Part shown: piece after piece, positions 1 to 53,615 of the stretch
Numbering within the stretch: the stretch's first letter is position 1
Layout of the letters: every line of letters begins with the position of its first letter
Assembly (NCBI GenBank): GCA_951406725.2
Contig: OX597836.1
Coordinates: 1 to 64,000, forward strand
DNA: 64,000 nt
Direction: 5' to 3'
Origin: Octopus vulgaris
Taxonomy: Eukaryota
Made by a program: the position numbers and the translations under genes
Notes under the pieces: model-generated
Databases searched by the model: none
What the model saw: the letters and a program-made list of their open reading frames with translations, nothing else
What the model was told of the DNA's origin: nothing

Positions 1-2021
<2,021 letters not shown>

Positions 2022-2051
2022 AAAAAGCAATAAAGATTCAAGTTAATTTAA

Positions 2052-3791
2052 ATGAATTTCCTGGAGAATTTTGAGAAAGACTTGCTGAACCTTATAGATG
2101 ATATTAGCTTCAAGGAACACCCGTTAAGGTATAACCCTCACCTTAAACACCTTAGGAACTTTATTCAGTCAACCCGGTGCAAACATGGAATCCTGGTACC
2201 AGCAGATAAAACGGGTAATATGTATAGAGTTGATTACGATATTTATAGCAAATTAATTAGGAAAGAACTAAACTCCAAATATAAAATTACGACCAGGATT
2301 AATTTGAAGAAAGTAAACTTGGAAATGAAAGAGATCATGGAAAAGCTAAATTTAACGGATAGAACGGAGCCACTTAAACCATGTGAGCCCAGGATCAATC
2401 TTAAAGACCACAAAAAGAACTTCTTGGAAAACCCTTCGGTAAGGTTGATCTGTCCAACTAGGTCGGACATTGGCCGACTTAGTAAATCTATCTTGGATAC
2501 TGTTCTACCCCAAATAACCCCTATTCTCCCCTTAAACCTATGGCTAAGTACCGATGAAGTTCTAAAATGGTTTAACTCTCTAACTAATACTAGTAGTCTG
2601 TCCTTTATTCAGTTCGATATTAATAGTTATTACTCTAGCATTTCCCCTATCTTACTCAACAAATCACTAATATTTGCCATGAATCGCTCCCTCATATCTA
2701 GAGAAGAAATCAATATTGTGCTACTAGCTAGGAAGACATTTATAGAATTTGAAGATAAATTATGGACTAGAGCAGATACACCAAATTTTTTTGATATACC
2801 AATGGGTTCCAGTGATTCGGCTGAGGTAACCAACCTAGTAGGCGCATATCTATTAAAATGCATAAGCAGGGATATCCCAGAATTACAGGGGGGTCTATAT
2901 AGGGATGATGCTCTGTTTGTTATCCCTAGTAATAATAAATCTGTTATAGAAAGGATTAGAAAGAAAATTAATAAGTTCTTTAGGGATTTCAACCTCAGTA
3001 TAACGTATGAACCGGGCACTAAAATAGTTAATTTCCTAGATACTACGCTAGACCTTAACTCCAAATTACATTACCCATTTAGAAAGGAAGGTGAAATCAC
3101 GAATTACATAAATAAATTATCAAATCATCCCCCAAATATTATAGAATCTCTAGTAAGAAATATTTCATTAAGAATTTCAAAATTATCATCCAATAAGGAT
3201 ATTTTTAACTCCCATTCTGAGCATTATAATGCGGCGTTAGCTAAGGCTGGATACAACCAAAAGATTACATTCGTTGATAAGGGGAACTCACGTATTCCTA
3301 ATAATGAAGTTATCAATAATCACGTAAGCAGCAATAAAGACCAAGCCCGAAATAAAAGTAGAATTAAACTAATGGTAAACACTAATATAGCGTATAGGCC
3401 CAACAATTCAAATAGAAACATTGACCAGAACATAGGTAACTCGGATAGTATTGAAGTAGATAAACCTAAGATACACACAAATAAAAATAAAAATAATGGT
3501 AACAAATACAATAACTCCGGTGAGATGAATAGTAATAATTCTACGAACCCTAAATTTAATAAAAAAGATATATTATGGCTGAATATTCCGTTCAACTGTG
3601 CGATACAATCGGATATACAGAACAAATTCAAAGTGATTCTGGAAAGAAATTTCCCTATCTCTCATAGATATCATAGAATTATTTCTAGGAAAACAGTTAG
3701 GATTTCTTATTCAACCCTCCCAAATATGTCCACTTTAATAGCTAAGATTAATAATAACAACATTAAACTAGCCAGGAAAGATAGAAATATA

Positions 3792-3822
<31 letters not shown>

Positions 3823-4700
3823 TCAGCATGAATACCAATAGCAATTGTAATAATACTACCAACAATAAAAGCAGCAATAGTAACTATCAAAACATAGGTG
3901 AAATTAGTAACCACAGAATGACTAATAACATTAACATTAATAGTAATAATAGCAATGCCGATATTAGTAGAAGTAATAATGTTAATAATAGAAATAATAG
4001 AAATAGGGAAAATAGAGAAAATAAGGAGAATGAAAATATTAGTGATATCTATAACAACAATATGCAGCCGGATAAAAAGACTAGCAATAATATTAACATT
4101 ACCAATAATATAAGAAATCATGGTAGGACTTTAGATCTAAATAATGAATCAGAAGGATCAAGAAATAATAGCAACACTTTAGATATCAGAACCAACTATA
4201 GAAATGATAATCAAAATAATAGGAACCTAAAACATCTACCCAAGAATAATCCAAAGCCTGAAGGTGTTCCTCCTGTGTGTAAATGTAGAATAAAATCAAA
4301 ATGCCCGGCACCTGGTCTATGTGGAGAAAATAATGTAATCTATAAATGTACCATATCCACGGAGAATAACAAATATCATTACATTGGATGTACAATAAAT
4401 TTTTTAGCTAGAGTTAGAAATCACATCTCGACTTTTAAATTACGTCATAAAGCTGGTACCACCACACTTTCAAACAAAATCTGGGAACTCAAAAATAATA
4501 ATAAAAATTATAACCTTAATTGGGAAATAGTTAGGAGAGCAATTCCGTATAAAAATAGTAGGGTTGGTTGCCAACTATGCTCCATGGAGACATATGAAAT
4601 TCTAAAGCATAGAAAGCATACAAACCTATTGAATAACCATATCGAGCTAGGTCAAGTTTGTGTCCACGCTAAATTAAAGACTTTAAAATATTTTAAATGA
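2052..4700 (+). CDS. Penelope-like (Naiad-type) reverse transcriptase with C-terminal GIY-YIG endonuclease, 882 aa
   Basis: PADKT N-terminal motif; QFDINSYYSSI (first catalytic Asp); IPMGS; GGLYRDD catalytic motif (2898-2909); NFLDTTL; SNHPP thumb; CKC-x5-CP-x4-C linker; VIY...YIG (4335-4388); CQLC..E and C-terminal CVH. No internal stops. Confidence 0.93.
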
Positions 4701-5447
4701 TTAGAATATTTGTAACTAGATAGATTGATATAACCTGTTTTCTACTGGTATAGCACTGCTTTAAGTAGATAAATAAGAGTTCTCAAACTACAGTTATCTT
4801 TGTCCTATATCTGCATCAGTTTTTTGAGAACAGGGAAATGGATAGCACTTATTCGCTGCTTAATTGAGGCTTTATTTAATTTCAAACTCACAACTTTTAA
4901 ATTTTTTTAAATTCTTAATTTTAAATCTTAATTGTAATTTTTAATTTTAGTTCCCAACTTAATCTAATTTGGTTAGTATAACTCTAATTAATTAGAATGA
5001 GTTGCTATAGACCCATAATTCTACTTCAAATTTAAATAAATGAGACTATTCCCTCGGTGATAATATGATTATCTTCATTATGATAGACAATCCCCTAACA
5101 CCTTTTAAATGATCTTCTAAGACTTGACCTGTAGTCCGTCAATGTATGAATAATAACGGCAACTCCTTAAGACAATAAAATGAATAAATTAAATAAGTAA
5201 ATTTTAATGACTTTTTGATAAGATCATACCTAGTTTTCCCTAATGTATTTTCTGATGATTTTAGCATCTGACCCCGAAACCCCTAACTGTGTTATCTCTT
5301 TAGATTCTCTTTAAATTCATAGCTGGTTTCAACAGCAATAAATTAGCTGTTTTAACTGGTCAAAGAATAATATTCTCCCCTAATTCCTAGATGCCTGTAA
5401 GCTAAAACCAGACTTGTCGTCTACTAATTCTTCCGTATAAGTAGAAT

Positions 5448-5700
5448 CTTTTTTTTTCTTTTTCTTTCTTCTTTCTTCTTTTTCTTTTTTTCTTTTTTTT
5501 CTTCTTTTTCTCTTTTTTTTCCCTTCCTTCCCTATTTCTTTCTCTTTTCTCTTTTTTCTTTTTCTTCTTCTTATCCTCTTTTTCCTTTTCTCTTCTCTTT
5601 GAGTCCCCCTTTCCCCCCTCCCTTTTTTGCTCCCTCCTCTTTTATTTTCTCTCTATTTTATTTTCTCTCTTCTCTTCTATGCCCTTCCCTCTTCTATTCT
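5448..5700 (+). repeat. Polypyrimidine (T/C) low-complexity tract in the 3' region of the Penelope-like element
   Basis: About 250 nt almost entirely T/C. Confidence 0.85.
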
Positions 5701-6256
5701 ATACAGCTCTAGTAAGCTCTTCAGCCTTAAAAATCAAATAGCTACAGCCTCTTGTAAATAGCAGTAATCTGATTAATGTGACAAATACCTATTCATATAG
5801 CAAGATTTGATACCTACCTCATTGTGTTCAACCATTGATAAATTTATCGCAGGTGAATATGAAATTCCTTGGAAATTTACACCTACACCATTGGAAATTG
5901 TGCATCTATACAAAGGATTAACTCACCCTCTCTGTAATGCTAATAAGCAGGAATTGAAACCCACCTCGTTATAATTGACAATGGATAAATTTGCTTTCTG
6001 TGAGTATGTAACCCCTCATCATATCTCTGGAAATTCATATGTGCACTGTGGATCGGGTCACCTTCTCTGTGATGCTATTAAGACTTTTTGAAATTCTGTG
6101 ATGCTATTAAGACTTTTTTGAAATTCTGTAATAAGACTGTAAATCATCTTTAAAGAACTTTAATGAACTTTTGAAATCTGTTTATGTTATTTAATTATCT
6201 ACATTACTTCATGAGTATAGCCTCAACCACTAGGATGTCTAGAGAACTCACATGTA

Positions 6257-6347
6257 TTTTAGCTGATGAGTACGGGACATGTTTATATGCTGTAATTTTT
6301 GCAACTTTTAATAAAACCTGTCCTTGTATGAAACGATCGTACTAAAA
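6257..6347 (+). ncRNA. Type I hammerhead ribozyme with short palindromic stem III
   Basis: Stem I ttttag(6257-62)/ctaaaa(6342-47); core CTGATGA (6263-69); stem II gtacgggaca.../...tgtccttgtat; GAAAC (6330-34); palindromic acgatcgt; cleavage triplet GTA (6339-41). Confidence 0.88.
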
Positions 6348-6378
6348 ACCTATCCATTCTTGTTGCTTCATTCTCGCA

Positions 6379-6872
<494 letters not shown>

Positions 6873-6916
6873 AAAAAATGAAGTTCGAAAATGCTGCTGT
6901 ATTATACAATTTTTAA

Positions 6917-6987
6917 TTTTTATATATACATTATAACATGTTTCAGTTCCTGAAATGAACCTTATCAAAAAAAGTTATATATAAAAA
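6917..6987 (-). ncRNA. Putative minimal hammerhead variant (U3:A8 core)
   Basis: Minus strand reads TTGATAA-ggttc-atttcag-gaact-GAAAC-at-GTT-A. Stem II pairs and stem III is palindromic (aacatgtt), but the proximal stem I pairs poorly. Confidence 0.4.
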
Positions 6988-7296
6988 GAGACAGCTCATG
7001 CCGTCAAACACAAGAAATTCATTTATAATACACAACCGAGTCAGACATCTTAGATTTCATGTATAGTTGATATATAGTTCATGTATAGTTGATATATAGT
7101 TTGAAGTATATTTCAAAGTGTTCGATGCAGTGTCCCACGGTGGCGATACGTATTCAATACAAGAAACAGATCAAAGTGGTGGAAAGCGGTCAATACAGAA
7201 GATTGATGTTTCCGAAAGAGCGAGGAATTCATTTTTACCTTAAGCAATTGTGATGACCCATGGTGGAAGTTCGCTGGGTTCTATATATATATATAT

Positions 7297-7530
7297 GTTT
7301 TTGTTTTTGTTTTGTTTTTGTTTTTCCAGTTTCAGCTCTTGAGCTGTGGCCATGTTGGGGCACCGCCATTGTGGTGAAAGAGTACAGCAGGGATCACCAC
7401 CCCCTGCCGGAGCCTCGTAGAGCTTTTAGGTGTTTTCGCTCAATAAACACACACAACGCCCGGTCTGAGAATCGAAACCGCGATCCTGCGACCGCGAGTC
7501 CGCTGCCCTAACCACTAGGCCATTGCGCCT
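7297..7530 (-). mobile_element. tRNA-derived SINE
   Basis: Minus strand: A box TGGCCTAGTGG, B-box-like GGTTTCGATTC, 3' tail ggcggtgccccaacatggccacagc...gctgaaac followed by (AAAAAC)n. Confidence 0.75.
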
Positions 7531-7534
7531 CTAC

Positions 7535-7577
<43 letters not shown>

Positions 7578-7639
7578 CATACGTATATATATACATACAT
7601 ATATATATATATACATACATATATATATATACATATACA

Positions 7640-8033
7640 CTAGCAGTATCGCCCGGCGTTGCTCGCGTTTGTAAGGGAAATAATTATATAAGCATTTTTA
7701 GAGATGTATAGTATAAAAGCCATCTCAATATGGCTAACCACAAAGGGGGAGGGGTGTTACTGTAGCTTTTTACGTTCTGAGATTTAATAATAAATTTTAG
7801 AGAGTTACTTCCCTTATATATGTCAAAAATGGATTAAAAATGGGAAAAATTGATGGTAAATTTTTTTTTAAATCATAGACTCATCGTAGACGCGCGCTAA
7901 TACCCAGAGGTCTCGATATGCATCACGACCATAAGATACCCGGTTTTGGTTAAACTGCACCTCAAAATGTGGGAGTAGTTAGGAATCTAAATCGTAGGAG
8001 ACAGACACACAACCTCACTTTTATATATAAAGA
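7640..8033 (-). mobile_element. Non-autonomous Helitron
   Basis: Minus strand 5' TCTTTATATATAAAA... and 3' ...gcaacgccgggcgatactgCTAG; homologous to 12660-13294. Confidence 0.75.
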
Positions 8034-8201
8034 TTTCCTCTATTTACATAATATTGAGGTCTCTTTCTTTCTTTTGTTATCTTACTGTTTTTACCAATAT
8101 ACATATATATATATATATATATATAAATATATATATAGTTACAGAGATGTACTTGCATAGCAAGTGACTTGATCTGAGATCGTGTGATGGAACGAAAACA
8201 G

Positions 8202-8460
8202 TTGCAGCGTTGAAGGTGTTTATAAGCCATTTAAGAAACACACAAAAACCGTTAGATTCACTTCAACATTTAAATTTAATTTGTCAAAATATTTTCGTCG
8301 CTTTGAGACCGCGACCTGTTAGCACGATATTTTTGTCAGTGAACAGGTCGCGGTCTCAAAGTGAGGAAAATATTTTGGCAAATTAAATTTAAATGTTGAA
8401 GTGAATCTAACGGTTTTTGTGTGTTTCTTAAATGGCTTACAAACACCTTCCACGCTGCAA
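8202..8460. repeat. Long inverted repeat (about 119-bp arms, 21-nt spacer) containing a hammerhead-like motif
   Basis: 8202-8320 is the reverse complement of 8342-8460 with few mismatches; (TA)n on the right and nearby on the left. Confidence 0.9.
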
Positions 8461-8480
8461 TATATATATACACATATATA

Positions 8481-8511
<31 letters not shown>

Positions 8512-8824
8512 GTGTATATGTGTATGTGTGTGTGTGTGCGTGTCTGTGCTTGTGATTGTCCTCCACCACTGCTTGACAACGAATGTTGGTTTGTTTACAT
8601 CCCTGTCACCTAGTGGTTTGACAAAGGAAACAGATAGAATAAGTACAATGCTTACAAAAATAAAACTGGAGTTGATTCATTAAACTACAATTCTTCAAGG
8701 CATTGCCCCAGCATGGCCATAGACCAATGGCTGGAAAAAGCAGAAGAATAAAAGAATGCATTCTCTGCTTTGGTCTTATGTTCAAGGCATGAGAAAGCTT
8801 GAGTTTACATGAGAAGGCCTAACA

Positions 8825-9100
8825 GACCTGGTAGAAACAGCAGCCAAATCTCCCTGAAATCACACCTTACTGTCTTATGTATGTATATATATATGAGCCA
8901 ATGAGGCGGACCTCTACATGGTAGCTAGACCTGGTAGAAATAGCAGCCAAATTTCCCCCAAATCACACCTTACTGTCTTATCTATGTATATATGTATGTA
9001 TGAGCCTATGAGGGAGACCCCTACATGGCAGCTAGACATGGTAGAAATAGCAGCCAAATCTCCCTCAAATCACACCTTACTGTCTTATGTATGTATATAT
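8825..9100. repeat. Tandem repeat, about 105-110 bp unit, about 2.7 copies
   Basis: Recurrent gac(c/a)tggtagaaa(c/t)agcagccaaat...aaatcacaccttactgtctta at about 8825, 8928 and 9035. Confidence 0.85.
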
Positions 9101-9112
9101 ATATACAAGCCA

Positions 9113-9575
9113 CTACGGTTATTTAATGTAAAGTCTTCCTCAAATCACTCTCGCTATTTACTCTCTTCCAAGAACATTTTCACTCACTCTTATCTCTTAG
9201 CTTGCCATACATTTTACTCATGTATCTATCAGCGTGATAGACAGAAACAAATATTACATCGCCATCGCATTCTATTGTCAACCTGTCAACACACACACAG
9301 TGAATTAGTTTCATTTTATTCGTTGCACACTGTGTGTGTGCGTTTGTGTGTGCTGTAAACCAGACTAAGAAAAGCATTTGACATACACACCAGAATGTGA
9401 GTTTTCTGTAAATTTTGCTTAATTGGAGTTTAAATTTTAAAAACTGGACCTGGCATGACCCGATGCATTCTACTCTTAAAAATGCTAGGTAAATTGTAAT
9501 TGAAGAAATCCTATATTGTAGATTTCTATAAGTGACAAAGGGAGGCAGATAAAATCTGCCTTTTATAATAAGAGA
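9113..9575 (-). mobile_element. Helitron-like 5' fragment (inverted copy of 11338-11762)
   Basis: Reverse complement begins TCTCTTATTATAAAAGGCAGATTTTATCTGCC and matches 11338-11762. Confidence 0.65.
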
Positions 9576-9978
9576 TATATATACATAATAAACCTTTACA
9601 TAAATAAATAACGTGAAATACACGAAGGGACGAACAAAAAGACAAACAGGTCATTCAAAGCCTTCATTCTTCAGTCAGAAACTGATCCCTCATCGCAGAT
9701 TTCGGCTGTTTAATTCTGAGATCCGCTCTGAATCAGCCAGCCACAGAAGGAAAGAATGCATACATACATATATATATATATATATGTATATACATATATA
9801 CATACATATATGTATGTGTATACATATATATGTATATGTATATACAGCAATAAGAAAATGGAGGGGATCAGGAGGTGCTAGTCATCAACTTTTAGAGATT
9901 ATATTATGTCGATTTATTTATTTTTTAAAAACCATTATAACAATATACATTGACCTATAACATATTATGCTTTACATA

Positions 9979-10350
9979 TCTCTCTATATATAAACAGCAA
10001 AATGTCTGTGTGTGTGTGTGTGTGTGAGTGTCCTTTATATAAATCCACAATTTTTCAGTTAGAGGGCTCGCACTTTCTATGGTCATTCAAAACCGCCCAA
10101 GGGTGGTCGTGCACATCTTTACATTTCCCCAGTCACCCTGCAAAGCCATTAAAAAATCAATAGAAGTGACTTTTTTGTGAATTTTCTATCCAAAACTCAA
10201 TCAAAATGCCTGAAACCCTATACGCCAATTGAATGCCAGCTAGCTGTATGTGATTGGTCAGAGATTTGGACAGTACTCGCATTCATGTGCGCATGCACAC
10301 AGCCGTATATGCATGCACTATGACCTGGCGTTGCCGGGTCATAGTACTAG
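9979..10350 (+). mobile_element. Non-autonomous Helitron
   Basis: 5' TC(TC)TATATATAAA, internal (TG)n, subterminal hairpin atgacctggc..gccgggtcat, 3' CTAG followed by T. Confidence 0.75.
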
Positions 10351-11337
10351 TATAATATATAGAACTATAAAAATACCAGTAATTATTAAAATATATAATG
10401 TAAAGCATAGGAAGTAGAATAGTATCTTACAGGTGTTTCAGCCAAGAGGTCATGGTACCCCACTTTACTTCCATCTCTTCAGTGAACTGAAGTATTTGGT
10501 AGATAAGATTAAGGTATCTATATATATATTAGTATTTTAGGTTACAGTAATATTACTAAGAGGGTATTGTTTTAATAGACTGCATATGAAAGATAAGTTA
10601 TTACAAATTTATTTAAAAAAAAAAAAACAGTATATAATAATGTATGTATCTGTCTAATTAGGGGAATCATTTGTATATTTACTTAACCATACAGGTGATA
10701 TAGGGTTAAAATCATATGTTGTAGGTCACTCAGACCAAATTCAAATAAGGAACAAAAGACCAAAAGTGACCGCATAAATTGTTTCACTAAGTTGTTATTA
10801 TTGCTAAAATTGTGCTTAAAAAGTATTCTCCAATAAAATGCATTAATTGTAATTCTTCATGCAACAGTGTTGTTACTAAATTAATGAACCAGCTCAATAT
10901 ATATCCTTATAAATCCTCTTTTATACATACCTACATATTACTAAGTTGTTATTTATCGCTAAAATTATGTTTAAAATATATTTTATCTTACAAAATGCCT
11001 CAAATGCAAGACTCAGTGTAATAGTGTTGAGTCAATTAATGAATCAATCAGTAATTCAGTCCTTTAAAATATTTATTTGTCTATTCAGTTAATTACTTTT
11101 AATGTTATATTAATGTCTAAAAGTTAATGAATACCACTTCTTGATCCCATCCATGTTCTTATTGCTGTATAAATTAAGGGTAAAACTACTTTTTACCCTC
11201 GTCTATTTATTACATTCAGTAGTGTAATTACCATGCAGTATTCTACCAGCAGTATATTGGATAGATATTATACCTTAGTTGGTTGGATTCACAACCTCTA
11301 ACTCTCTTGGAATTATATATATATATATATATATATA

Positions 11338-11762
11338 TCTCTTATTATAAAAGGCAGATTTTATCTGCCTCCCTTTGGGAGTTATACAAATCTACAATAT
11401 AGGATTTCTTCAATTACAATTTACCTAGCATTTTTAAGAGTAGAATGCATCGCGTCATGCCAGGTCCAGTTTTTAAAATTTAAACTGCAATTAAGCAAAA
11501 TTTACAGAAAACTCACATTCTGGTGTGTGTGTCAAATGCTTTTCTTAGTCTGGTTTACACCACACGCAAACGCACACACACAGTGGGCAACGAATAAAGT
11601 GAAACTAGATGTAATATTTGTATCTCTCTATCACGCTGATAGATACATGAGTAAAATGTATGGGAAGCTAACACATAAGAGTGAGTGAAAATGTTCTTGG
11701 AAGAGAGTAAATAGCCAGAGATAGTGATTTGAGGAAGACTTTACAATAAATAACCGTAGTGG
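11338..11762 (+). mobile_element. Helitron-like 5' fragment
   Basis: Starts TCTCTTATTATAAAAGG after a (TA)n run; homologous to 9113-9575. Confidence 0.65.
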
Positions 11763-11889
11763 CTTGTGTTAGTAATAAAGTAAACATACACTCATACATA
11801 CATACATACATACATACATACATACATACATACATACATACATACATACACACACACACATACATACATACACACACACATACATACAC

Positions 11890-11950
<61 letters not shown>

Positions 11951-12208
11951 GTATTGAAGCTTCAGAACAATCAGATACATTTGCAACACATCTGTTGAAA
12001 ATATTATTGTTCACACACATACATATACATATATATATACAGACAGACAGACAGATAGACACACACACACACACACATGATTCAGCATGGCCACAACCTC
12101 AAGGCTGAAACATATAAAAGAATAACAGAATATAAATGTGTGCATGTGTGTGAGAGAGAGAGTGTGTGTGTATATGTATGTATGTATGTATGTATGTATA
12201 TATATATA

Positions 12209-12640
12209 ATAATGCGGTTTTTTCAACAGCTTGAACTAAAAGTCAGAGGGGAATGGGATAAACTACTTATATTAACTTGCTATAAAAGCAGGTAGTAATT
12301 TTATCTTGTCCTTATTCATAGTGCAAGTTTTGAAGAGTGCATTTCGATTTTAACAGCTATTTTTTTCAATGCTATATTGGAACAGCCTAGAAGATGAGCC
12401 TCATCCTGAAAGATCTGTAGAACTCGACAAGGACATCCTGAAAACCCTGGTGGAACAAAATCTCATCGTAACTGTTGAGGAACTAGCAGAGAAGCTTGGA
12501 TTTGGTCATTCAACCATTCATTGAGACCTGTGTGCTATCAGAAAAGTCAGCAAATTGGGTCAATGGGTTCCTCACGAACTTTCCGAGTCTAATTGCATGC
12601 AGAGAGTGAATGTATGCTTTTCTTTGCTGTCACATCTCAC
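12209..12640 (+). mobile_element. Mariner transposase relic
   Basis: Hand translation from about 12384: SLEDEPHP..VELDKDILKTLVEQN..VTVEELAEKLGFGHSTIH*DL..KLGQWVPHEL (HTH plus WVPHEL motif, internal stop). Confidence 0.85.
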
Positions 12641-12659
12641 CATTACTGCGCTATGTATA

Positions 12660-13293
12660 TCTATATATATAAAACTGTAGGTGTGTGAGTGTCTGTCCCC
12701 TTCGATTTAGATTCCTAACTACTCCCACATTTTGCGGTGCAGTTTAACCAAATTCGGGTAGCTTATAGTCGTGATTCATATCGAGCCCGTCTGAGTATTA
12801 GCGCGCGTCTACGATGAGTCTACGATTTTAAAAATAATTTAACATCATTTTTTATTCCATTTTAATGCATAATTTTTCGTGTATCGATGGCGGCGGAGTT
12901 GGCGTCCACGCTCACACCTGCACCTGTGGGGAAGGGAGTGCAAGGAAATCAACGTCGTAATGCGTTGTCAAGGAGACCAGCGTTCTTTTAGAACAACGAC
13001 TTCATGGCTTGAAGACACCAAAACAGAAATGGCTAAGAAAGCGTCTACATGAGTCTACGATTTAAAAAAAAATTTACCATCGTTTTTTCCCCATTTTAAT
13101 GCATTTTTTCGCTATTATATAAGGGAAGTAACTCTCTAAAAATGTCTACGATGAGTCAACGATTTAAAAAAAAATTTACCATCATATTTTTTCCATTTTT
13201 AATGCATTTTTTGCTATTTTTTGGCTATAACTCTAAAAATGCTTATATAGTTATTTCCCTTACAAACCCGAGCAACGCCGGGCGATACTGCTA

Positions 13294-13294
<1 letters not shown>
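12660..13294 (+). mobile_element. Non-autonomous Helitron
   Basis: 5' TCTATATATATAAAA, 3' hairpin cccgagcaacgccggg then CTAG; inserted between A and T. Confidence 0.8.
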
Positions 13295-13343
<49 letters not shown>

Positions 13344-14049
13344 ATAGAAATGATAAGACAACAAAAGAATGAAAGAGACCTCGATATTATGTAAATAGAG
13401 GAATTTATCTGTAAATGTAATATGTGACAATTATTTGGTAGCCATGATAAAGCTCCGAGTTTCGGATGTTGGGGTGGAAATCCATGCCACCATCTTCAGT
13501 TATCCGGCCATCAGAAAAAATTCTATGTAAATGACCGTTAAAACAAAGGGAAATTACTCTTTTATTGACTGTTATTAAGACAAAAGAGCTATTTGAATGA
13601 CCGCTAAGTGAGGGGAGGGAGTAAAAGTAAGGGGGTAAAATTGTACATAGTATTCGCGTAAGCGCGCATGTCCATACCTACACATGCACGCCTGCACACC
13701 CATGTACATGTGCCTATAAGTATACACTCATCCACCCTCACTTGAAACATACACATTCTCACCCATGCCATTCACCAAATATATATATATATACAATCCC
13801 ACACACACGCACACCAAAAAGTTTCATACACACGTCTATATACACACAAGCACAAGAAAAAACAGGGTTAAGGGCAACAATACAGAAAGTGTAAAGAAGT
13901 ATAAAAAAAATATATAAGCAATAAGAGTAAAACACGTCCTTATACACACATACTCACATACACACACACATACACAGCTATATATGCACATACCTGCACA
14001 CATGCACATACACAAAGGATTCCATATACATGTCTATACATTAAGTCAA

Positions 14050-14620
14050 ACCCAAAGGCCTTTCATTACATGAAAGAAACAGCCTCAGTACACTGCAAGA
14101 TAGGGCCACTCTTCCAAAAGGATGGCTCCCTCACAGACAGTCCAACTAAGATCAATGAGATACTGAATGACCAGTTCAAAAGTGTCTTTACCACCCCGTT
14201 GGAACACAGACAAATGAACGAACCAGTTGACTTCAGCCCATCTGTAAACTGAGTCCAACTCCTGCTGCAGGTATGCAACATTGCTGGGGTACTGTCTTTT
14301 CTGCAAGACTTTTGCATTGTCTGCGTAGCTTGCAAGGGTTTCCATCTGAGCAGTAGAAGGCATATCTGAGAGGGCCGCTATGAAAAGCAGTGGTCCCAAG
14401 ACAGTGCCCACTGGAACACTACTCACTATTAGTGTTTTCATTGAGGTGGTTCCATTGGCCACTACTACCTGACTTCTATCTTTCAGAAATTCATGTAACC
14501 ACTCTCCAAGTTTTCCAGTTATGCTGAGATCATGTAGTTTATGGCATATCATACTATGATTCACTTTATCAAAAGCAAAGTATATTACATCCACATTTGA
14601 GTTGTTGAGTAACTGCCTCA
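14050..14620. mobile_element. Rearranged CR1-like LINE fragments (two pieces in opposite orientation)
   Basis: Plus strand KIGPLFQKDGSLTDSP..EILNDQFKSVFT; minus strand DVIYFAFDKVNH..VPVGTVLGPLLF..SYADN (degenerate RT). Confidence 0.75.
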
Positions 14621-15001
14621 ACACCCAGTGATGTCCAGTGGCTTCTAGTGGCAGAAGTCTGAACTGTGAAGGGCTTGTCCCATAAAGAATGTTTCTGGTT
14701 ACTTTTGGGTACCCTCTCTTATATACACACATGTATATACACACACACACAGACAGTGTGTGAGGGATTATTGAAGTCACTTATATATCAGCATATTACT
14801 CTTTGCAAACCAAAATCAATGAAAAGGCTCATATTTCTTTTAGATCTTTCACAGCAGATAAAATGCTAATACAAGAAATGAAAATACATGCAGTCATTCT
14901 TGCTATATATGCAAAAAATAAAATTTAACTAGAAAGAACATGCTAATATAAAAATCATTGGGGAAAAAAAATGAAAAAAAAAAATACTATAAAATACTTA
15001 C

Positions 15002-15070
15002 TTGCATACCAGAGAGAGCTACTACACCCATATACAAGAATACACCATATAATACTGGCATAGGAATAAT
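15002..15070 (-). CDS. SLC4: SLC4 bicarbonate transporter exon (IIPMPVLYGVFLYMGVVALSGMQ)
   Basis: Hallmark SLC4 IPMPVLYGVFLYMG motif; aag acceptor and gtaagt donor; 69 bp, phase consistent. Confidence 0.93.
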
Positions 15071-15989
15071 CTTTAAAAGAGATAAAATTATGATTTATTT
15101 ACATTTAGTGTATCTCATGCAATTCTAGACATTACACCCATAATTTCTTGAGAGAGAGAGACTGAGTGAGTGTGTGTGAAAGTGTATTAGTGCTTATACT
15201 TCTGTAGTGCTGTGTGTCTATTAGTGCTTGTACTTTAGTACCATGTCCCACAGTCATGCCCAGGAATTTGGACTTGTATAAAATGGTTTGTGCTTTTTTA
15301 ATCCATGTAAGATGGAGTAAACTTCTCAACCATACAGCCATGCCAACACCTGTTGTGATATGAAGGACATTTAGTTGATATTTCTCAAAGGCTTATCTCA
15401 TAAAATATCTAGTTTGACTATACCACCTATTTTTGATACATCAAAATAAAACACTATATTCTAATTTATTCACAGGGTAACATAAAAAGAAAATATATTG
15501 GGTTCAAATTATTGCATATAATATATAATCCTTTCTACCATAAGCTTGAAATTTTGGTGGGTTGGAGCTAGTTGATTACATCAATCCCAGTGCACAACTA
15601 GTACTTATTTCATTGACCCTGAAAGGATGGAAGGTAAAGTTGACCTTGACAGAATTTGAAATCAAAACTCTAAGACAGATGAAATCCTGCAAAGTATTTC
15701 ATCTGGCATACTAATGACTCTGCCAGCTTGCAACCTTAATAATAATAAAAATGAAAAGAAATAATAATTATCTGTGTATGTGTATGTATATATGACATGT
15801 TGTGTTTTAGTTATGCACGTGTTGTGATTATATTTCTCTAAAGCAATGTAAGCACAGCTGACAGTCATTGGTAGTCATGCTGCTGTATTGATCTATAAAT
15901 AAGATTTATGGTATCAACTGATGTTTTACAAAATCGTGTTGGCATATCTTTGTGAATTTTACAATAACTGGTAATTTTGTGTGAAGAAG

Positions 15990-30142: not shown

Positions 30143-31183
30143 GATTTAGAAAAGATTAGCTTTTATTAGCCGAAAGGAGGTAGTCACAGTTCTAGGACAG
30201 CACTCTACACCATATGAGATATCATCAGGTGTACCACAGGGATCTGTCCTTGGTCCCCTCTTGTTTGTGGCATACATTAATGACATAGATGCCACTTTAA
30301 AGAATGCCACAGTATTGAAATATGCAGACGACATCAAGCTGTACCTTGAAATCAAGAGGACAGATCCTGATGTCTACAACTCTTTCCTGCAATCAGACCT
30401 AGACACAATGCAGCAATGGATCACAGACTGGCAACTGAAACTGGCTGTGGACAAGTGTACCACCATGCATTTTGGGAGAAAAAACCCTGCGTCCACATAC
30501 TCCCTCCACAACACTGATATCAAGAAATCCTCTTGCGAGCGTGACCTAGGCATCGCTGTCAGCAGTGATTTGCGTTGGACAGGGGCATATCTCTAAAATT
30601 GTCAAGAAGGCCGAGGGTGTCTTGGCATCACTCAGCAAGACTTTTGTTAGCCGCTCTCCAGCCATCTATTTAAAACTGTATATAGCTATGGTACGACCAC
30701 ACTTGGAATTCGCATCATCAGTTTGGAACCCCTATCTTGCTCAGAACATTGACCTCCTGGAATCTGTCCAGAGACGTGCAACCAAACGCATACCCTCCAT
30801 CAGGCACCTACCATATTCTGAGCGCCTTGTTTCCCTGGGCATGGATTCACTGAAGCTCCGGCGTCTGGCGATGGACTTGATAAACACCCACAAAGTTATC
30901 AACCACCTCACCAACAACAACACTGAACACCTTTTTGATCTCCATGTGTCTAACACACATGGACATGCCTACAAAGTCAGAAAACAACACAGCTCCCATG
31001 ACTTTCGGAAACATTTTTTCACGCTCAGAGTTGCTGAAGCATGGAATAAACTGCCTGCGTCAGTTGTTGACTGCCATGACACTGCATCCTTTAAGGCCCT
31101 CATGCTTTCCGAAATCCGCCGAAACTACACCTGATTATATATACACTTTAGATGAGTTGTAGTGCACCTGAGCACTGTACACA

Positions 31184-36009: not shown

Positions 36010-36498
36010 TAATATATATATTCATCATCATCGTTTAGCGTCCGCTTTCCATGCTAGCATGGGTTGGAAGGTTCAACTGGGGTCTGGGAAGCCAGAAGGC
36101 TACACCAAGCCCAGTCTGATCTGGCAATGTTTCTACGGCTGGTTGCCCTTCCTAATGCCAACCACTCCGTGAGTGTAGTGGGTGCTTTTTACGTGCCACC
36201 GGCACTATATATATATGTATATATATATATATGTATATGTATATATATATGTATATATGTATATATATATATATGTATATGTATATATATATGTATATAT
36301 GTATATATATATATATGTGTATATATGTATATATATATGTATATATATGTATATATGTATATATATATGTATATATATGTATATATATATATATATATAT
36401 GTGTATATATATATATATGTATATATATATAATATATGTATATATATATAATATATATGTATATATATATAATATATATATATGTATGTATATATATA

Positions 36499-37112
36499 TT
36501 GTCCTAAGCCGCCTGGACTACTGCTCCCAACTGTGGTCACCGCATAGTGTCAAACTAACCACAGAGCTTGAGACAATCCAAAGACATTTCACCAAGAGGA
36601 TTTCCACCATGAAAGAAAAGAACTATTGGGAGAGGCTTAGGGAACTCAATTTGTACTCCTTGGAACGAAGACGAGAGAGATATGCAGTGATATACATATG
36701 GAAAATCCTGGAGGGACTAGCACCAAATTTTAGAATTGAGAGCTGTTCCAATCCCCGTACAGGACGTCACTGTGTGGTGCCAAAGGTCCCGTCTTCCACA
36801 TCCAGGGTAAGGAGCAGATACTGTAATAGCCTGGGGTTCAGGGGCCCTCAGCTGTTCAACAAACTGCCAAGAAAACTAAGAGATCTACATGATGCGGATG
36901 TGGACATTTTCAAAAAACATCTAGACAAGCTGCTTTCCGGGATCCCAGATGAACCCACTGCAAGGTACGAAGGTAACCTAAGGGCAGCAGCTACAAACTC
37001 TCTCTTAGATCAGTGGCCAGCCACGGCAAACTGGACTTAGAGAGGGTAGCAACAAGGGCGGTGCCCCAGCATGGCCTCAGCCGGATGGCTGAAACAAGTA
37101 AAAGAGTAAAAG
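36499..37112 (+). mobile_element. 5'-truncated CR1/L2-like LINE 3' end between TA arrays
   Basis: [51 protein letters not shown]; tail gcggtgccccagcatggcc..ggctgaaacaagtaaaagagtaaaaga. Confidence 0.88.
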
Positions 37113-39269: not shown

Positions 39270-40690
39270 CCATCATCATCATCGTTTAACGTCCGCTTTC
39301 CATGCTAGCATGGGTTGGACGGTTCAACTGGGGTCTGGCAAGCTCGAAGGCTGCACCAGGCCAGTCAGATCTGGCAGTGTTTCTACAGCTGGATGCCCTT
39401 CCTAACGCCAACCACTCCGAGAGTGTAGTGGGTGATTTTATGTGCCACCGACACAGGTGCCAGACGAGGCTGGCAGACGGCCACGCTCAGATGGTGTTTT
39501 TATGTGCCACCGACACAGGTGCCAGACGAGGCTGGCAGACGGCCACGCTCGGATGGTGTTTTTATGTGCCACCGACACAGGTGCCAGACGAGGCTGGCAG
39601 ACGGCCACGCTCGGATGGTGTTTTCTTATGTGCCACCGACACAGGTGCCAGACGAGGCTGGCGAACGGCCACGCTCGGATGTTGTTTGTTACGTGCCCAC
39701 AGCACAGAGGCCAGTCGATGCGGTACTGGCTACGGTCACGTTCGGATGGTTTTCTTATGTGCCACCCACAAGGATACAAATTCCATTGATGTTCATCAAA
39801 GACTTTCTCCAAGTCAACGAAAGCCAGGTACAGAGTTTTATCTTTGGCTAGGTATTTCTCCTGCAGCTGTCTCACCAGAAATATGGTATCAGTGGTGCTT
39901 TTCCCTGGCACGAAACCAAACAGCATCTCATCTAGGTTGACTCGCTCTCTAATCAGTTGGGCTATGACCCTTTCTGTAACCTTCATTACCTGATCCAACA
40001 GCTTAATACCTCTGTAATTACTTGTATCTAGGGCATCACCTTTACCTTTGTAGCAGTTGACTATTATGCTACTGCACCAGTCATTGGGTATGACTCCTTC
40101 GTGTATCACCTGGTTTACTATACGGGTGACTAGGCTATAGCCGACACTGCCAGATATTTTGAGCATCTCAGCAGTAATTCCTGACGGGCCTGGGGCTTTC
40201 CCTGTCTTCAAGCTTCCAATTGCCTTAACTACCATGGAACTGTCAACTCGGATAGCTGGTCCCTCTATTGGGTCGACATTCGGCAGACTCTCTTTATCCC
40301 ATTCATTCTCTTTGTTGAGCAACCTTTCATAGTGGCATCTCCAAACCTCTCTCTTTGCATCCTCATTTAGCGCAAGTGAACCATCATCCATGCGAACACA
40401 TTTCTCTCCTACCACATCACGAATCTCTCTCACACACTGTCTTGCAACATGAAACACCTCAAGTCTTTGGTCCTCACGGCACAGAACATTGGCAAATTTT
40501 TTTCTTATCTGCTTCCCCTCTAGCAAAATATACCTGTCTCCTAGCTTCTCTTTTTGCAGTCTGATACAATTCCCTACTATCGCCTTTCCTCCAGTCCTTC
40601 CAAGTCTGTCTCTTGTCTCTAATAGCCCTGTCTACAACATTGTTCCACCACCACGTTACCCTGGGACGAGATGGGACTTTGCTCCATCAC
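39270..40690 (-). mobile_element. Internally deleted RTE LINE (partial RT fused to 3' UTR)
   Basis: KAPGPSGITAEMLK, YKGKGD, NYRGIKLL, FGFVPGKSTTDTIF, AFVDLEKVFD, then a jump into 3' UTR sequence; (GAT)n tail. Confidence 0.9.
39439..39690. repeat. About 62-bp tandem repeat x4 in RTE 3' UTR
   Basis: Unit tatgtgccaccgacacaggtgccagacgaggctggcagacggccacgctcggatggtgtttt. Confidence 0.9.
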
Positions 40691-40695
40691 AGATC

Positions 40696-40731
<36 letters not shown>

Positions 40732-40838
40732 GCATTTCTATTTTGGATGTATTTGGGGTATTTAGTTGTGCTCATGACTTAGTATTTTGCTTCTTCCATG
40801 AGTATGAGTAAGTATCTCGTTTATTTCTTTACCACATT

Positions 40839-40891
40839 TATCACTGACAAAGGGAGGGTTCTTACGAACTAATCCTGAAATCAGTCCGATA
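40839..40891 (+). ncRNA. Decayed minimal hammerhead in a TA-flanked small element (about 40729-41117)
   Basis: tatca-CTGACAA-agg...cct-GAAAT-ca-GTC-cgata. Deviations from a canonical fold are C>T/G>A transitions. Confidence 0.5.
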
Positions 40892-41477
40892 TGGTAATAA
40901 TGGAATTTTTTAGAAATTTCTATCAGCTTTTTTTCGAGTAGTGTGCGTATTGTGAAAAATTATATGGTAATGGACAATATGTCCAATTTTTCGGCATTAG
41001 AGATCTTTTCGTTTGCCCTTATTTATAAGCTGTTTATAATTTTAACCTTTAAAGGTATTTTTTAATATGCTGGCCATTGATAAAATATTTTTAGAAAAAA
41101 TTTTATCCTACATTAAATATATATATATATATATATATATATACATTATATGTGTGTGTTTGAAAGAGAGAACATAGCCTAGTGGTTAGCATGTTTTAAT
41201 CACAACTGCAAGACCATGGTTTCAATTCTTAGAGCAGGTGATGCATTGTGTTCTTCAGCAAAACACTTCATCTCATGTTACTCTGTGATTACTTCGATCC
41301 CTGGTATGTGACACACTGTGCACCTTCTCAGACAACGTTCATTTGATGGAGAGTGAGCTAATATGTGGCATGAACATTTGATCACTGTAAACATCTGTGC
41401 TGGTCATTTGGCAAGCTGAATGCTCATATGTCATCTTCGATGAGAGTGTCCATCATATATATATATATATATATATA

Positions 41478-44400
41478 TCATCCTCATTTAACGTCCGCTT
41501 TCCATGCTAGCATGGGTTGGACGGTTCAACTGGAGTCTGGGGAGCCCGAAGGCTGCACCAGGCCAGTCAGATCTGGCAGTGTTTCTACAGCTGGATGCCC
41601 TTCCTAACGCCAACCACTCCGAGAGTGTAGTGGGTGATTTTATGTGCCACCGACACAGGTGCCAGACGAGGCTGGCGAACGGCCACGCTCGGATGGTGTT
41701 TTTTTTTTTATGTGCCACCGACACAGGTGCCAGACGAGGCTGGCAGACGGCCACGCTCGGATGGTGTTTTTATGTGCCACCGACACAAGTGCCAGATGAG
41801 GCTGGCGAACGGCCACGATCGGATGGTGTTTGTTACGTGCCCACAGCACGGAGGCCAGTCGATGCGGTACTGGCTACAGCCACGTTCGGATGGTTTTCTT
41901 GTGTGCCACCGGCACTGGTACTACAAAGATGCAAATTCCATTGATGTTCATCTATTTTGATTTGGTTTGATTTTCACTTGCCTCAACAGGTCTTCACAAG
42001 TGTCACATACTTGCCTCAACAGGTCTTCACAAGTGTCATAAGAAGGAAGGTATGCACAGGTAGACTGACTACGTCCCAGGTAGGGGCCACGGGTTATGGC
42101 CTGACTAGTCTTGCCGGGTCTTTGGATGGTGTTTTTATGTGCCACCAACACAGGTGCCAGATGAGGCTGGCGAACGGCCACAATCGGATGGTGTTTGTTA
42201 CGTGCCCACAGCACGATGTGGTACTGGCTACCGCCACGTTCGGATGGTTTTCTTGTGTGCCACCGGCATTGGTACCACAAAGATACAAATTCCATTGATG
42301 TTCATCTATTTTGATTTGTTTTGATTGGATTTGATTATGATTATGATTATGATTATGATTATTATTATTATTATTATTATCACTTGCCTCAACAGGTCTT
42401 CACAAGTGTCATTTGATTTGATTGGATTTGATTAGCACTTGCCTCAACAGGTCTTCACAAGTGTCATAAGAAGGAAGGTATGCACAGGTGGACTGACTAC
42501 GTCCCAGGAAGGGGCCACGGGCTATGGCCTGACTAGTCTTGCCGGGTCTTCGGACAGGTGCCAGATGAGGCTGGCGAACGGCGTTTGTTATGTGCCCACA
42601 GCACGGAGGCCAGTCGATGCGGTACTGGCTACAGCCACGTTCGAATGGTTTTCTTGTGTGCCACCGGCACTGGTACCACAGAGATACAGATTCCATTGAT
42701 GTTCATTTGTTTTGATTTTTTTGATTTGTTGATTTGTTGATTTTCACTTGCCTCAACAGGTCTTCACAAGTGTCACAAGAAGGAAGGTATGCACAGGTGG
42801 ACTCCCAGGTAGGGGCCACCACAATCGGATGGTGTTTGTTATGTGCCCACATCACAGAGGCCAGTTGATGCGGTACTGGCTACGGCCACATTCAGATGGT
42901 TTTCTTGTGTGCCACCGGTACTGGTACCACAAAGATACAAATTCCATTGATGTTCATCTATTTTGATTTGGTTTGATTTGATTTTGATTTTCACTTGCCT
43001 CAACAGGTCTTCACAAGTGTCACACACTTGCCTCTGCCTCAACAGGTCTTCACAAGTGTCACACACTTGCCTCAACAAGTGTCACACACTTGCCTCAACA
43101 GGTCTTCACAAGTGTCATAAGAAGGAAGGTATGCACAGGTGGACTGACTACGTCGCCGGGTCTTCGGATGGTGTTTTTATGTGCCACTGACACAGGTGCC
43201 AGATGAGGCTGGCGAACGGCCACGATCAGATGGTGTTTGTTGTGCCCACAGCACGGAGGCCAGTCGATGCGGTACTGGCTACGGCCACGTTCGGATGGTT
43301 TTCTTGTGTGCCACCGGTACTGGAACCACAAAGATACAAATTCCATTGATGTTCATCTATTTTGATTTGGTTTGATTTTCACTTGCCTCAACAGGTCTTC
43401 ACAAGTGTCACACGTGTCACACACTTGCCTCAACAGGTCTCCACAAGTGTCACACACTTGCCTCTGCCTCAACAGGTCTTCACAAAGTGTCACACACTTG
43501 CCTCTGCCTCAACAGGTCTTCACAAGTGTCACACACTTGCCTCAACAGGTCTTCACAAGTGTCATAAGAGGGAAGGTATGCACAGGTGAACTGACTACGT
43601 CGCCGGGTCTTCGGATGGTGTTTTTTATGTGCCACCGACACAGGTGCCAGATGAGGCTGGCGAACGGCCACGATCGGATGGTGTTTGTTGTGCCCACAGC
43701 ACGGAGGCCAGTCGATGCGGTACTGGCTACGGCCACGTTCGGGTGGTTTTCTTGTGTGCCACCGGCACTGGTACCACAAAGAATACAATTCCATTGATGT
43801 TCATCTATTTTGATTTGTTTTGATTTGATTTTCACTTGCCTCAACAGGTCTTCATAAGTGTCACAAGAAGGAAGGTATGCACAGGTGGACTGACTACGTC
43901 CCAGGTAGGGGCCACGGGTTATGGCCTGACTAGTCTTGCCGGGTCTTCTCACGCACAGCATACTTCCATAGGTCTCGGTCTCTAGACATTTCCTTAGTGA
44001 GACCTAAAGTTCGAAGGTCGTGCTTCACCACCTCGTCCCAGGTTTTCCTGGGTCTACCTCTTCCACAGGTTCCCTCAACTGCTAGGGTGTAGCACTTTTG
44101 CACACAACTATCTTCAGCCTTTCTCGTCACATGACCATACCAGCACAGCCGTCTCTCTTGCACACCACAACTGACGCTTCTTAGGTTCAACTTTTCTCTC
44201 AAGGAACTTACACTCTGACGATTATGAACACTGACATTACACATCCATCGGAGCATACTGGCTTCATTTCTTGCGAGCTTACGCATATCCTCAGCAGTCA
44301 CGGCCCATGTTTCACTACCATGTAGCATGGCTGTACGTACACATGCATCATACAGTCTGCCTTTTACTCTGAGCGAGAGGCCTTTTGTCACCAGCAGGGG

Positions 44401-44783
44401 TAAGAGCTCTCTAAACTTTGCCCAGGCTATTCTTACTCTAGCAGTTACACTTTCAGCACACCCACCCCCGCTACTGACTTGGTCTCCTAGGTAGCGGAAG
44501 CTATCAACTACTTCTAGTTTGTCTCCCTGGAACGTGGCAGAAGTTGGTCTCTGCACATTTCCAGTGTTTATTGCTCCTGAGCATTTGCCACAGACAAAAA
44601 CTATTTTCCTAGTTAGCCTTCCTTTGACATTGCTGCACCTCTTATGTGTCCATAGCTTACACTTGGTGCATCTTATAGAGTTTCTACCTACACCTTTTTT
44701 ACAGATCGAGCAGGGCCATCTACCTGAAGGCGTTTGTGATTGATCTACCTTCCTACTTATTAGGACTTTGGTTTTGGCTAGGT
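41478..44783 (-). mobile_element. 5'-truncated RTE LINE with strongly duplicated 3' UTR
   Basis: ORF 43930-44783 part: NLAKTKVL, Cys-rich PCSIC..C..C..WTH..C, FRYLG, MLHGSETW, ERRLCWYGHV, GRGRPRKTW. The UTR (41478-43930) is a modular tandem array. Confidence 0.9.
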
Positions 44784-44807
44784 TGTATATATATATATAT
44801 ATATACA

Positions 44808-44990
44808 TGCTGGTGGCACGTAAAAACACCCACTACACTCTCAGAGTGGTTGACGTTAGGAAGGGCATCCAGCTGTAGAAACTCTGCCAGATCAAGATTG
44901 AAGCCTGGTGCAGCCATCTGGTTCGCCAGCCCTCAGTCATTCGTCCAACCAATGCTAGCATGGAAAGCGGACGTTAAACGATGATGATGA
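44808..44990 (+). mobile_element. RTE 3'-end fragment
   Basis: Ends gctagcatggaaagcggacgttaaacgatgatgatga. Confidence 0.75.
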
Positions 44991-45801: not shown

Positions 45802-46248
45802 CCTTTCTACAATAGGCACAAGACTTGCAATTTGTGGGGAGGTGACTAGTTGATTACATTAACCCCATGTTTCACTAGTACTTAATTTATCAACCTTCAA
45901 AGGATGAAGGGCAAAGACAACCTCAGTGGAATTTGAACTCAGAATGTAGCAACAGACAAAATACCACAAGGCATTTCACCTGGTATGCTAATGATTCTGC
46001 CTGCTTACTACCTTAATAATAATTATTATAATAATCCTTTCTACTGGAAGCATAAGGCCTCAAATTTGGGGGGAAGGGGTCAAGTCGATTACATCAAACC
46101 CAGTGCGTAACTGGTACTTATTTGATTGACCCCAAAAGGATGAAAGGCAAAATTGACCTCGGTGAAATTTGAACTCAGAATGTAGCAACAGGTGAAATAC
46201 CATTAAGCAATTCCTCCAGCAAGCTAAGGATTCTGCCAGCTCACTGCC

Positions 46249-46283
<35 letters not shown>

Positions 46284-46288
<5 letters not shown>

Positions 46289-53137: not shown

Positions 53138-53615
53138 TGTCACTGGCCAACTGGAGGTGTCTTCTTGGGGTTAAAAACAACAATAACACCGTCCTCAATA
53201 GGACCACCATATTTAGTTGGCAAATATATTTTATGATTCCATACTGTTACTGTTTATCTCTCGCTTAAAAATTTAACATAGCTTATCTCACTCTTTCTAC
53301 TAGATCAACGACTGTGTATTGCTAGAAAAGGAGATAGTATTTTGTGATTGGAATTTCTTCATCACTTGCCAGTGATTAACACACACTGAAGATGGGTAGT
53401 CACTCAGAAACCTGGGTTTGTGTGTATCAAATAAGGATAGAGATGGGAGCGATGACCTTCCTCATAAATACTAATCAGACACAGACTGTGTCAATGGCCA
53501 GCTGGAGGAGATGTCTTCATGGGGTTAAAAACAACAGTAACACCATCCTCTATAGGACCACCACAATGTTTTATGATTCTGTAATGTTACCGCTTATCTC
53601 TCACTCAAAGATTTA
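53138..53615. repeat. Imperfect direct repeat (about 130 bp x2)
   Basis: tgtca.tggcca.ctggagg..tgtcttc.tggggttaaaaacaaca.taacacc.tcctc.ataggaccac at about 53138 and 53489. Confidence 0.75.

Follow-up and report, generated by a model that had tools for sequence, protein, structure and literature searches.

A probable Hydra-type Penelope-like element, long, young and 5'-truncated, in a TA microsatellite of Octopus vulgaris

Two described clades of Penelope-like elements (PLEs) bear on the element reported here, which lies in a 64,000-nucleotide stretch of Octopus vulgaris DNA (contig OX597836.1, positions 1 to 64,000; the window). As Craig 2021 (PMC8557442) describes them, Hydra-clade elements have a C-terminal nuclease without CCHH, the motifs DKT, RWK and CxCX5C, and CxxC and CxH around E and N; they target (TA)n, carry canonical hammerheads, have no insertion in the fingers of the reverse transcriptase (RT), and are generally < 3 kb long. 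An octopus family is on record there: Hydra-1_Obim, a 2507-bp element of Octopus bimaculoides that is listed with (TA)n as target and with 'no pLTR' (no pseudo-long terminal repeat). Naiads are defined in the same source by an N-terminal nuclease with CCHH, by DKA and by no canonical hammerhead; they also have a CxC domain, an insertion in the fingers, a length of 3.4-4.4 kb and a preference for (TA)n, and File S1 of that source records them in octopus. An earlier, sequence-only reading of the window named the element a Naiad. Our analysis makes it likely that the element belongs instead to a young, long-form family of Hydra type and is a copy truncated at its 5' end, probably inserted into a TA microsatellite through target-primed reverse transcription and likely inactive.

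The element spans 2058-6377, 4320 nt despite its truncation, and is bracketed by TA-type microsatellites at 1-2022 on the left and 6378-6868 on the right. The left run, annotated as 1-2021, is a (TA)n tract with (CA) interruptions (88-89% matches) and is the likely target site; the right flank is a (TA)n microsatellite recovered by the same kind of scan. The plus-strand open reading frame (ORF) at 2052-4700 encodes 882 amino acids; no other of the window's 81 stop-to-stop ORFs that reach 100 amino acids is as long. Its first part, at 2058-3290, is a telomerase-like RT with thumb, lacking its 5' portion, recognised by motifs (DKT at 2205, residue 52; YRDD at 2898, residue 283; NHP at 3123), fold and homologues. 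Its last part, at 4278-4700 with the stop codon at 4698-4700, comprises a CxCX5C linker (CKCRIKSKC from residue 743, with C743, C745 and C751) and a GIY-YIG endonuclease, identified by motifs and a match to the I-TevI fold, in which Y764, YIG 777-779, R787, H791, CxxC 840-843, E846, N861 and CxH 870-872 are all in place. The ORF scan, motifs and folds thus recover everything that the sequence-only reading had listed (the 882-residue ORF, DKT, YRDD, the Cys-rich linker, the C-terminal GIY-YIG and the flanking (TA)n), and its placement of the element among the PLEs, with a (TA)n target, agrees with fold, motifs and the TA runs at both flanks of this copy. Of its layout only the start, put at 2022, has to move, as family sequence begins at 2058 and 2022-2059 is a separate piece.

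The clade name, in turn, was wrong. Wherever the relevant region is retained, all Hydra protein features are present: a single ORF with RT and C-terminal GIY-YIG, DKT, CxCX5C and the CxxC-E-N-CxH pattern. Moreover, the (TA)n target typical of the Hydra clade is seen on both sides. Four Naiad features fail. The nuclease (residues 760-864) lies C-terminal of the RT, contrary to the Naiad domain order; residues 52-54 read DKT, not DKA; one Cys alone stands between Y764 and Y777, so the two-Cys CCHH pattern of Naiads is absent; and a canonical hammerhead descriptor matches at 6257-6347, unlike in Naiads. The fingers hold 63 residues from D189 to G252, against 64 in Hydra-1_Obim (counted by eye), with no insert relative to homologues. 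Among 129 aligned homologues, DKT occurs in 108 (DKS in 16), CxCX5C in 104 and the C-terminal CxxC-E-N-CxH pattern in 117, while an N-terminal RWK or RWR, present in 97 of them, belongs to a region outside the truncated ORF. No 5' pLTR is found at this copy, a loss expected from 5' truncation. That the element is a Naiad, as its (TA)n target and the occurrence of Naiads in octopus (File S1, PMC8557442) might suggest, is virtually impossible given the C-terminal nuclease, DKT, the missing CCHH and fingers insertion and the canonical hammerhead; the domain order already refutes it. A quick-mode tree of 70 of the 129 RT rows, built from unlabelled homologues only, places the ORF within a group of eight rows (SH-aLRT 99), the other members being P0001-P0004 and P0121-P0123, of which one comes from Argonauta. 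The supplement of Craig 2021 (PMC8557442) contains none of five short motifs taken from the ends of the element, and no description of the family was found in the literature searched, a scope outside which most subscription papers fall.

The identities of the RT and the nuclease rest on the predicted fold and not on Pfam. An AlphaFold model of the ORF, made from 130 sequences, has a mean predicted local distance difference test score (pLDDT) of 78.1, and its first structural match is a telomerase RT (Foldseek, 3du5, E 6.7e-9). In a VIA comparison, telomerase RT 6zdp aligns over 308 residues (Z 16.1; root-mean-square deviation, rmsd, 5.8), and model residues 760-864 superpose on the catalytic domain of I-TevI (1ln0) with Z 9.7 and rmsd 2.5 over 90/92 residues. 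The neighbours of the ORF in the protein Atlas, RT-like and GIY-YIG clusters, are a lead only. Pfam finds no family in the ORF and nothing meaningful in 14 aligned members, and a sequence-profile search of the PDB gives no match. A nuclease fold predicted from the single sequence was dropped for its pLDDT of 35.5. We collected 252 protein homologues, the best full-length one being 47% identical; homologous fragments reach 84-86% identity and point to closer relatives. No relative was found among viral contigs.

Two Asn-rich inserts, both predicted to be disordered, set the protein apart from its aligned homologues. The first (3279-3566, residues ~410-505, 28% Asn) makes a linker of 109 residues, compared with a median of 27 and a maximum of 77 in 129 homologues; the second (3759-4256, residues ~570-735, 38% Asn, including an (AAT)10 run) makes one of 176 residues, compared with a median of 16 and a maximum of 89 in 125. 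Between them, alignment and model agree on a conserved folded segment past the thumb, the region from W509 to N567 (3567-3758). The pLDDT falls below 50 at residues 418-495 and 600-734, and the inserts are likely tolerated as disordered linkers in the modelled protein. The longest first linkers among the homologues come mostly from the ORF's own 8-row group, and growth of this linker looks like a subclade trend in the aligned sequences.

Other copies of the family were seen in public contigs of four sequencing runs (X1, X2, X3 and X11), aligned over 2022-5400. Contigs of X2 and X11 reach further upstream than 2058, by 178 and 255 nt respectively, and one X1 contig adds 298 letters. Thirty of the upstream letters read KSRKSPPQNP in frame, which resembles the homologue segment preceding a conserved FE (compare KSRKSPPQ in P0012 and KSRKYPPQN in Hydra-2_Amil), and homologue matches start at about residue 62-117 of the full proteins, mostly near 70-85. 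The copy is therefore truncated at 2058, and by this sequence comparison ~70-80 N-terminal residues are missing. The contigs rule out a frameshift near 2058 behind a short N-terminus. In addition, the last depth bin is 9-29 times as high as the second in 4/4 runs, which fits 5' truncation but is a hint only, depth being no copy number.

Among the listed pieces less than 6.5% divergent, differences from this copy amount to 17/1628 nt in X1 (7 of 8 listed), 31/2232 nt in X2 (5 of 8), 28/662 nt in X11 (4 of 8) and 8/236 nt in X3 (2 of 8). Judged by these contigs, this is a young octopus family, with ~1% divergence in two runs (X1 and X2) and an unbroken ORF. The 28 coding differences found among 40 listed rows of 250 (13 silent, 15 amino-acid-changing) spare every listed catalytic and Cys residue. 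The sequence-only reading had already suspected both a young octopus family and a 5' truncation with the N-terminal segment and 5' pLTR missing, and the contigs and match starts bear it out. As a separate observation, X2 shows 54 T>C against 30 A>G differences over 2022-5400, an excess seen in X2 alone, for which antisense RNA edited from A to I or the presence of divergent copies might account; no run recorded as RNA was found among the holders in the sequencing-run search, and the RNA status of X2 is a guess.

Downstream of the stop codon lies a long non-coding 3' region (4701-6256), for which the contigs show family membership up to 5400. It holds a pyrimidine-rich low-complexity tract, short direct repeats and a degenerate hammerhead-like core at 5252, and its only ORFs are low-complexity frames. 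A type I hammerhead motif follows at 6257-6347, one of two strict type I matches that a descriptor scan of both strands of the window returns (6263 and 53386). Stem I pairs 6257-6262 with 6342-6347 (6 bp), the core is 6263-6269, the stem II region of 60 nt (6270-6329) folds at about -10 kcal/mol, GAAA starts at 6330, and a palindromic stem III of 3 bp (6333-6340) precedes the predicted cut after 6341. Hydra hammerheads in File S2 of PMC8557442 are laid out in the same way, and strict hits occur in 0/300 Markov-shuffled 3' regions; on this match the terminal hammerhead announced by the sequence-only reading is upheld, Rfam being silent. Short palindromic stems III are described as the usual mark of animal hammerheads that act as dimers and are only weakly active alone (PMC4209133). 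By analogy, this ribozyme is predicted to depend for most of its cleavage on dimerisation or on a helping protein, and to process tandem transcripts.

We compared these dimensions with 94 related loci (L001-L094), 49 of which had a recognised ORF end and a strict hammerhead downstream. From stop to hammerhead core the distance is 1562 nt here and 67-515 nt (median 129) in the 49, and the stem II region of 60 nt compares with 10-31 nt. Such a distance, three times the largest among the relatives, could mean that the locus is a composite, in which a Hydra element ended near the 5252 core and a second hammerhead unit of ~1 kb (a pLTR or a retrozyme-like RNA) supplied the ribozyme and the 3' end. 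The 5252 core has upstream context in common with the 6263 core, X2 depth climbs from ~17 to 99 over 5186-5400, and divergent loose X2 ends occur at 5269 and 5333, all of which would suit a composite. However, no TA run or junction mark appears between 4700 and 6257, the two hammerhead regions share no extended similarity (score 30 against a shuffle mean of 30), the 5252 core does not satisfy the stem I test, and X1 pieces span 4920-5295 at 1-3% divergence. We consider a composite unlikely and continue with a single long Hydra-type element. The degenerate core itself (5243-5290, CTGATGA...GAAAC) lies 1011 nt before the terminal one, and the same similarity score led us to reject it as a duplicate of the terminal hammerhead.

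The relatives show a further feature just behind the hammerhead. Of the 56 hammerhead families whose sequence continues for 90 nt or more past the cut, 47 have a hairpin of the form GCUC-stem-(UU/UC/UA)-GAGC with a 2-nt bulge, mostly followed by ACU, that begins within 110 nt of the cut (examples: L018 246, L024 36, L053 41, L086 10302), compared with a mean of 0.8 and a maximum of 4 in shuffled sequences. The first hairpin starts 36-61 nt after the cut in 46/47, and a second often lies near 100-125. Thirty hammerhead copies run out into (TA)n, 17 of them 31-54 nt and nine 95-118 nt past the cut, and in all 13 for which a longer mate exists the next hairpin starts from -1 to 12 nt beyond the end. 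The present element ends 36 nt past its predicted cut (6342-6377), within the short-end class of 31-54 nt. These positions suggest that the hairpin is an RT start-site signal and that RT would initiate internally. The GCUC...GAGC motif is visible in published Hydra consensus sequences (PMC8557442); the words hairpin and stem-loop are absent from the main text of that paper, and no description of the hairpin was found in the literature searched, again a scope with most subscription papers outside it. Separately, the Hydra-type elements L078-L094, which have hammerheads and TA runs, come from contigs catalogued under bacterial genomes or symbiont bins; they are likely animal DNA in those bins and not bacterial elements.

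A precedent for such internal initiation is PAc, a Poseidon PLE of Anolis carolinensis, whose RT is reported to start inside uncut RNA at two sites, which explain its 30-40 bp tail, and whose hammerhead needs protein (Frangieh 2024, PMC11167929). Because of the relatives' insertion ends and this in vitro work, we propose the following scheme. The protein of a full-length copy would nick the (TA)n run; the RT would then begin at an internal position of the RNA, 36 nt beyond a hammerhead site that is still uncut and probably immediately 5' of the hairpin. It would copy 4.3 kb and stop prematurely at 2058, and a 2-nt overlap would link the new end to 38 nt of another repeat, RNA or DNA.

These 38 nt (2022-2059) meet the family sequence with a 2-nt overlap at 2058-2059 and contain ATG 2052, which is in frame and preceded by an in-frame TAA. 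Contigs carrying the piece have other letters after 2059 in 4/4 runs, and the first depth bin is 2.3-15.6 times the second across the four. By these contig sequences the piece belongs to another high-depth repeat; it has no second match in the window and none in JGI metagenomes. In the forward reading, AATAAA lies near the start of the piece, which is as long as a short end, and the contigs continue after it with letters that resemble, by eye, a variant hairpin ~48 nt from the start of the piece; piece and following letters form a hairpin in other copies, and X11 shows a variant of the latter. These features suggest a jump to another hammerhead-cut RNA: having finished its own RNA, the enzyme would take this second template, start at its short-end site and copy 38 nt to the cut 5' end. 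Alternatively, the piece may be the inverted 3' end of another repeat. We rejected an inverted copy of the element's own 3' end, for which neither strand of 5700-6377 gives a match and weak AT-rich scores in 4701-5430 were not accepted, and the inverted long end of the family lost ground as no hairpin or hammerhead signature is seen by eye in that orientation. Across the related loci, AATAAA lies within 20 nt of the hammerhead cut in 19/72 post-cut sequences (shuffle mean 1.5).

Several observations weigh against a young, long-form Hydra-type family with these properties. The tree carries no labelled Hydra, Naiad, Neptune or Poseidon references and so is no membership test. At 4320 nt the element exceeds the 'generally < 3 kb' of the clade, and we therefore file it as a long Hydra variant. 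Rfam returns no hammerhead and chance-level matches only, on the window as on 4700-6380, and the unconstrained minimum free energy fold of 6250-6350 lacks stem I (z -1.29). The hairpin lies beyond the end of this copy, so that its role here is by analogy. The contig alignment ends at 5400, with the last ~1 kb outside it, and the (TA)n flanks are known from this copy alone. Finally, 14 listed pieces are 10-15% divergent and pieces of X3 and X11 are 3-4% away; the family therefore includes older or species-specific layers.

The sequence-only reading also held that the element could supply RT and endonuclease to small ribozyme elements nearby. A link between PLEs and retrozymes has been published as a hypothesis (bioRxiv 10.64898/2026.07.22.740005), and a full-length member of the family could be a retrozyme helper. 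For this copy the claim finds no support: ~70-80 N-terminal residues and the 5' pLTR are missing, and the one other strict hammerhead in the window, at 53386, is not TA-flanked and has no sequence in common with the element. That hammerhead (53379-53425) has a CUGAAGA core and a 7-bp stem I and sits in a region that has an imperfect direct repeat of ~350 nt spacing. One could still imagine an active or co-opted copy in which ATG 2052 yields an N-truncated protein of 882 residues that mobilises ribozyme elements in trans; the open codons, the in-frame ATG and the intact D189, YRDD, R787, E846 and N861 would favour it. We judge this highly improbable, since the conserved residues lost include the RWK/RWR motif, there is no 5' pLTR, the copy is antisense to a host gene, an open ORF is expected at ~1% divergence, and the other hammerhead has no sequence link to it. 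Judged by its sequence, this copy is itself probably unable to transpose or to provide enzyme. It is tempting to go further and speculate that Hydra-type RTs find template and start through the GCUC...GAGC hairpin, that this insertion records a template jump, and that the family is a young, long-tailed helper of octopus retrozymes in trans; we offer this combination tentatively and hold it to be well short of an even chance.

The host gene encodes an SLC4 bicarbonate transporter, with ten exon-like matches to SLC4 transporters that run along the minus strand between 58208 and 14999 and share 90-100% identity with a protein of Octopus sinensis. The last ~125 residues of other cephalopod-like SLC4 orthologues were not found in 1-15100, and therefore the element likely lies in a long intron, antisense. 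Of the earlier claim of an antisense position in an SLC4 intron, the orientation is confirmed by the exons and the intron is likely; both Octopus database models (P0266 and P0267) end at about the exon 15064-14999 and may be incomplete. Elsewhere in the window, 39290-44832 contains minus-strand RT-like ORF pieces (39438-40631 and 43930-44832) with repeated units of 62-68 nt, which are probably RTE-type LINE remains. LINE-like pieces also occur at 30150-31134, 36156-37040 and 46228-47520, and a near-perfect inverted repeat of ~140 nt at 8260-8401 is MITE-like or a head-to-head remnant.

Taken as a locus, this is the ordinary kind of transposon debris, situated in a likely intron. Both octopus Hydra elements and recently active Penelope families were already known (PMC8557442 File S1; PMC13282606). 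In O. vulgaris the recently active Penelope families comprise 30 families with 329 insertions, 1.8 Mb in all and ~5.5 kb each (PMC13282606 Table 1); therefore long PLEs may already be annotated there, perhaps this family too. What our analysis adds is modest: a corrected clade assignment, from Naiad to Hydra, and a wider size range for Hydra elements through the long 3' region, the Asn-rich linkers and the long stem II. Moreover, the family is young and keeps its catalytic core intact, which makes it a practical choice for the first Hydra-clade biochemistry, and the relatives' hairpin gives a precise, testable rule for where RT starts.

Compared with known systems, the likeness to telomerase RT (3du5, 6zdp) and I-TevI (1ln0) is one of fold only; these best fold matches are 10-17% identical. 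With Naiads the element has in common the (TA)n preference, a size of 3.4-4.4 kb and presence in octopus, and it differs from their N-terminal CCHH nuclease, DKA, CxC domain, fingers insertion and lack of a canonical hammerhead. PAc, with its RT and C-terminal GIY-YIG, AT-rich target and hammerhead, is a model for how the element likely works, yet it belongs to another clade and starts in an AC-rich stem-loop inside its ORF, whereas Hydra-type ends fall just before the GCUC...GAGC hairpin in non-coding RNA. The closest likeness is to Hydra-clade PLEs including Hydra-1_Obim, the family from the nearest named host: a single ORF with RT then GIY-YIG, DKT, CxCX5C, no CCHH, CxxC and CxH around E and N, no fingers insertion, (TA)n and a type I hammerhead with a short stem III, together with, for the clade, a 3' end ~36 nt past the cut and RT motifs that are co-linear by eye. 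Hydra-1_Obim is nonetheless a different family, judged by eye rather than by a tool alignment, and our element departs from its Hydra relatives in being at least 4.3 kb long, in its two Asn-rich inserts, and in its 1562-nt distance from stop to hammerhead and 60-nt stem II region.

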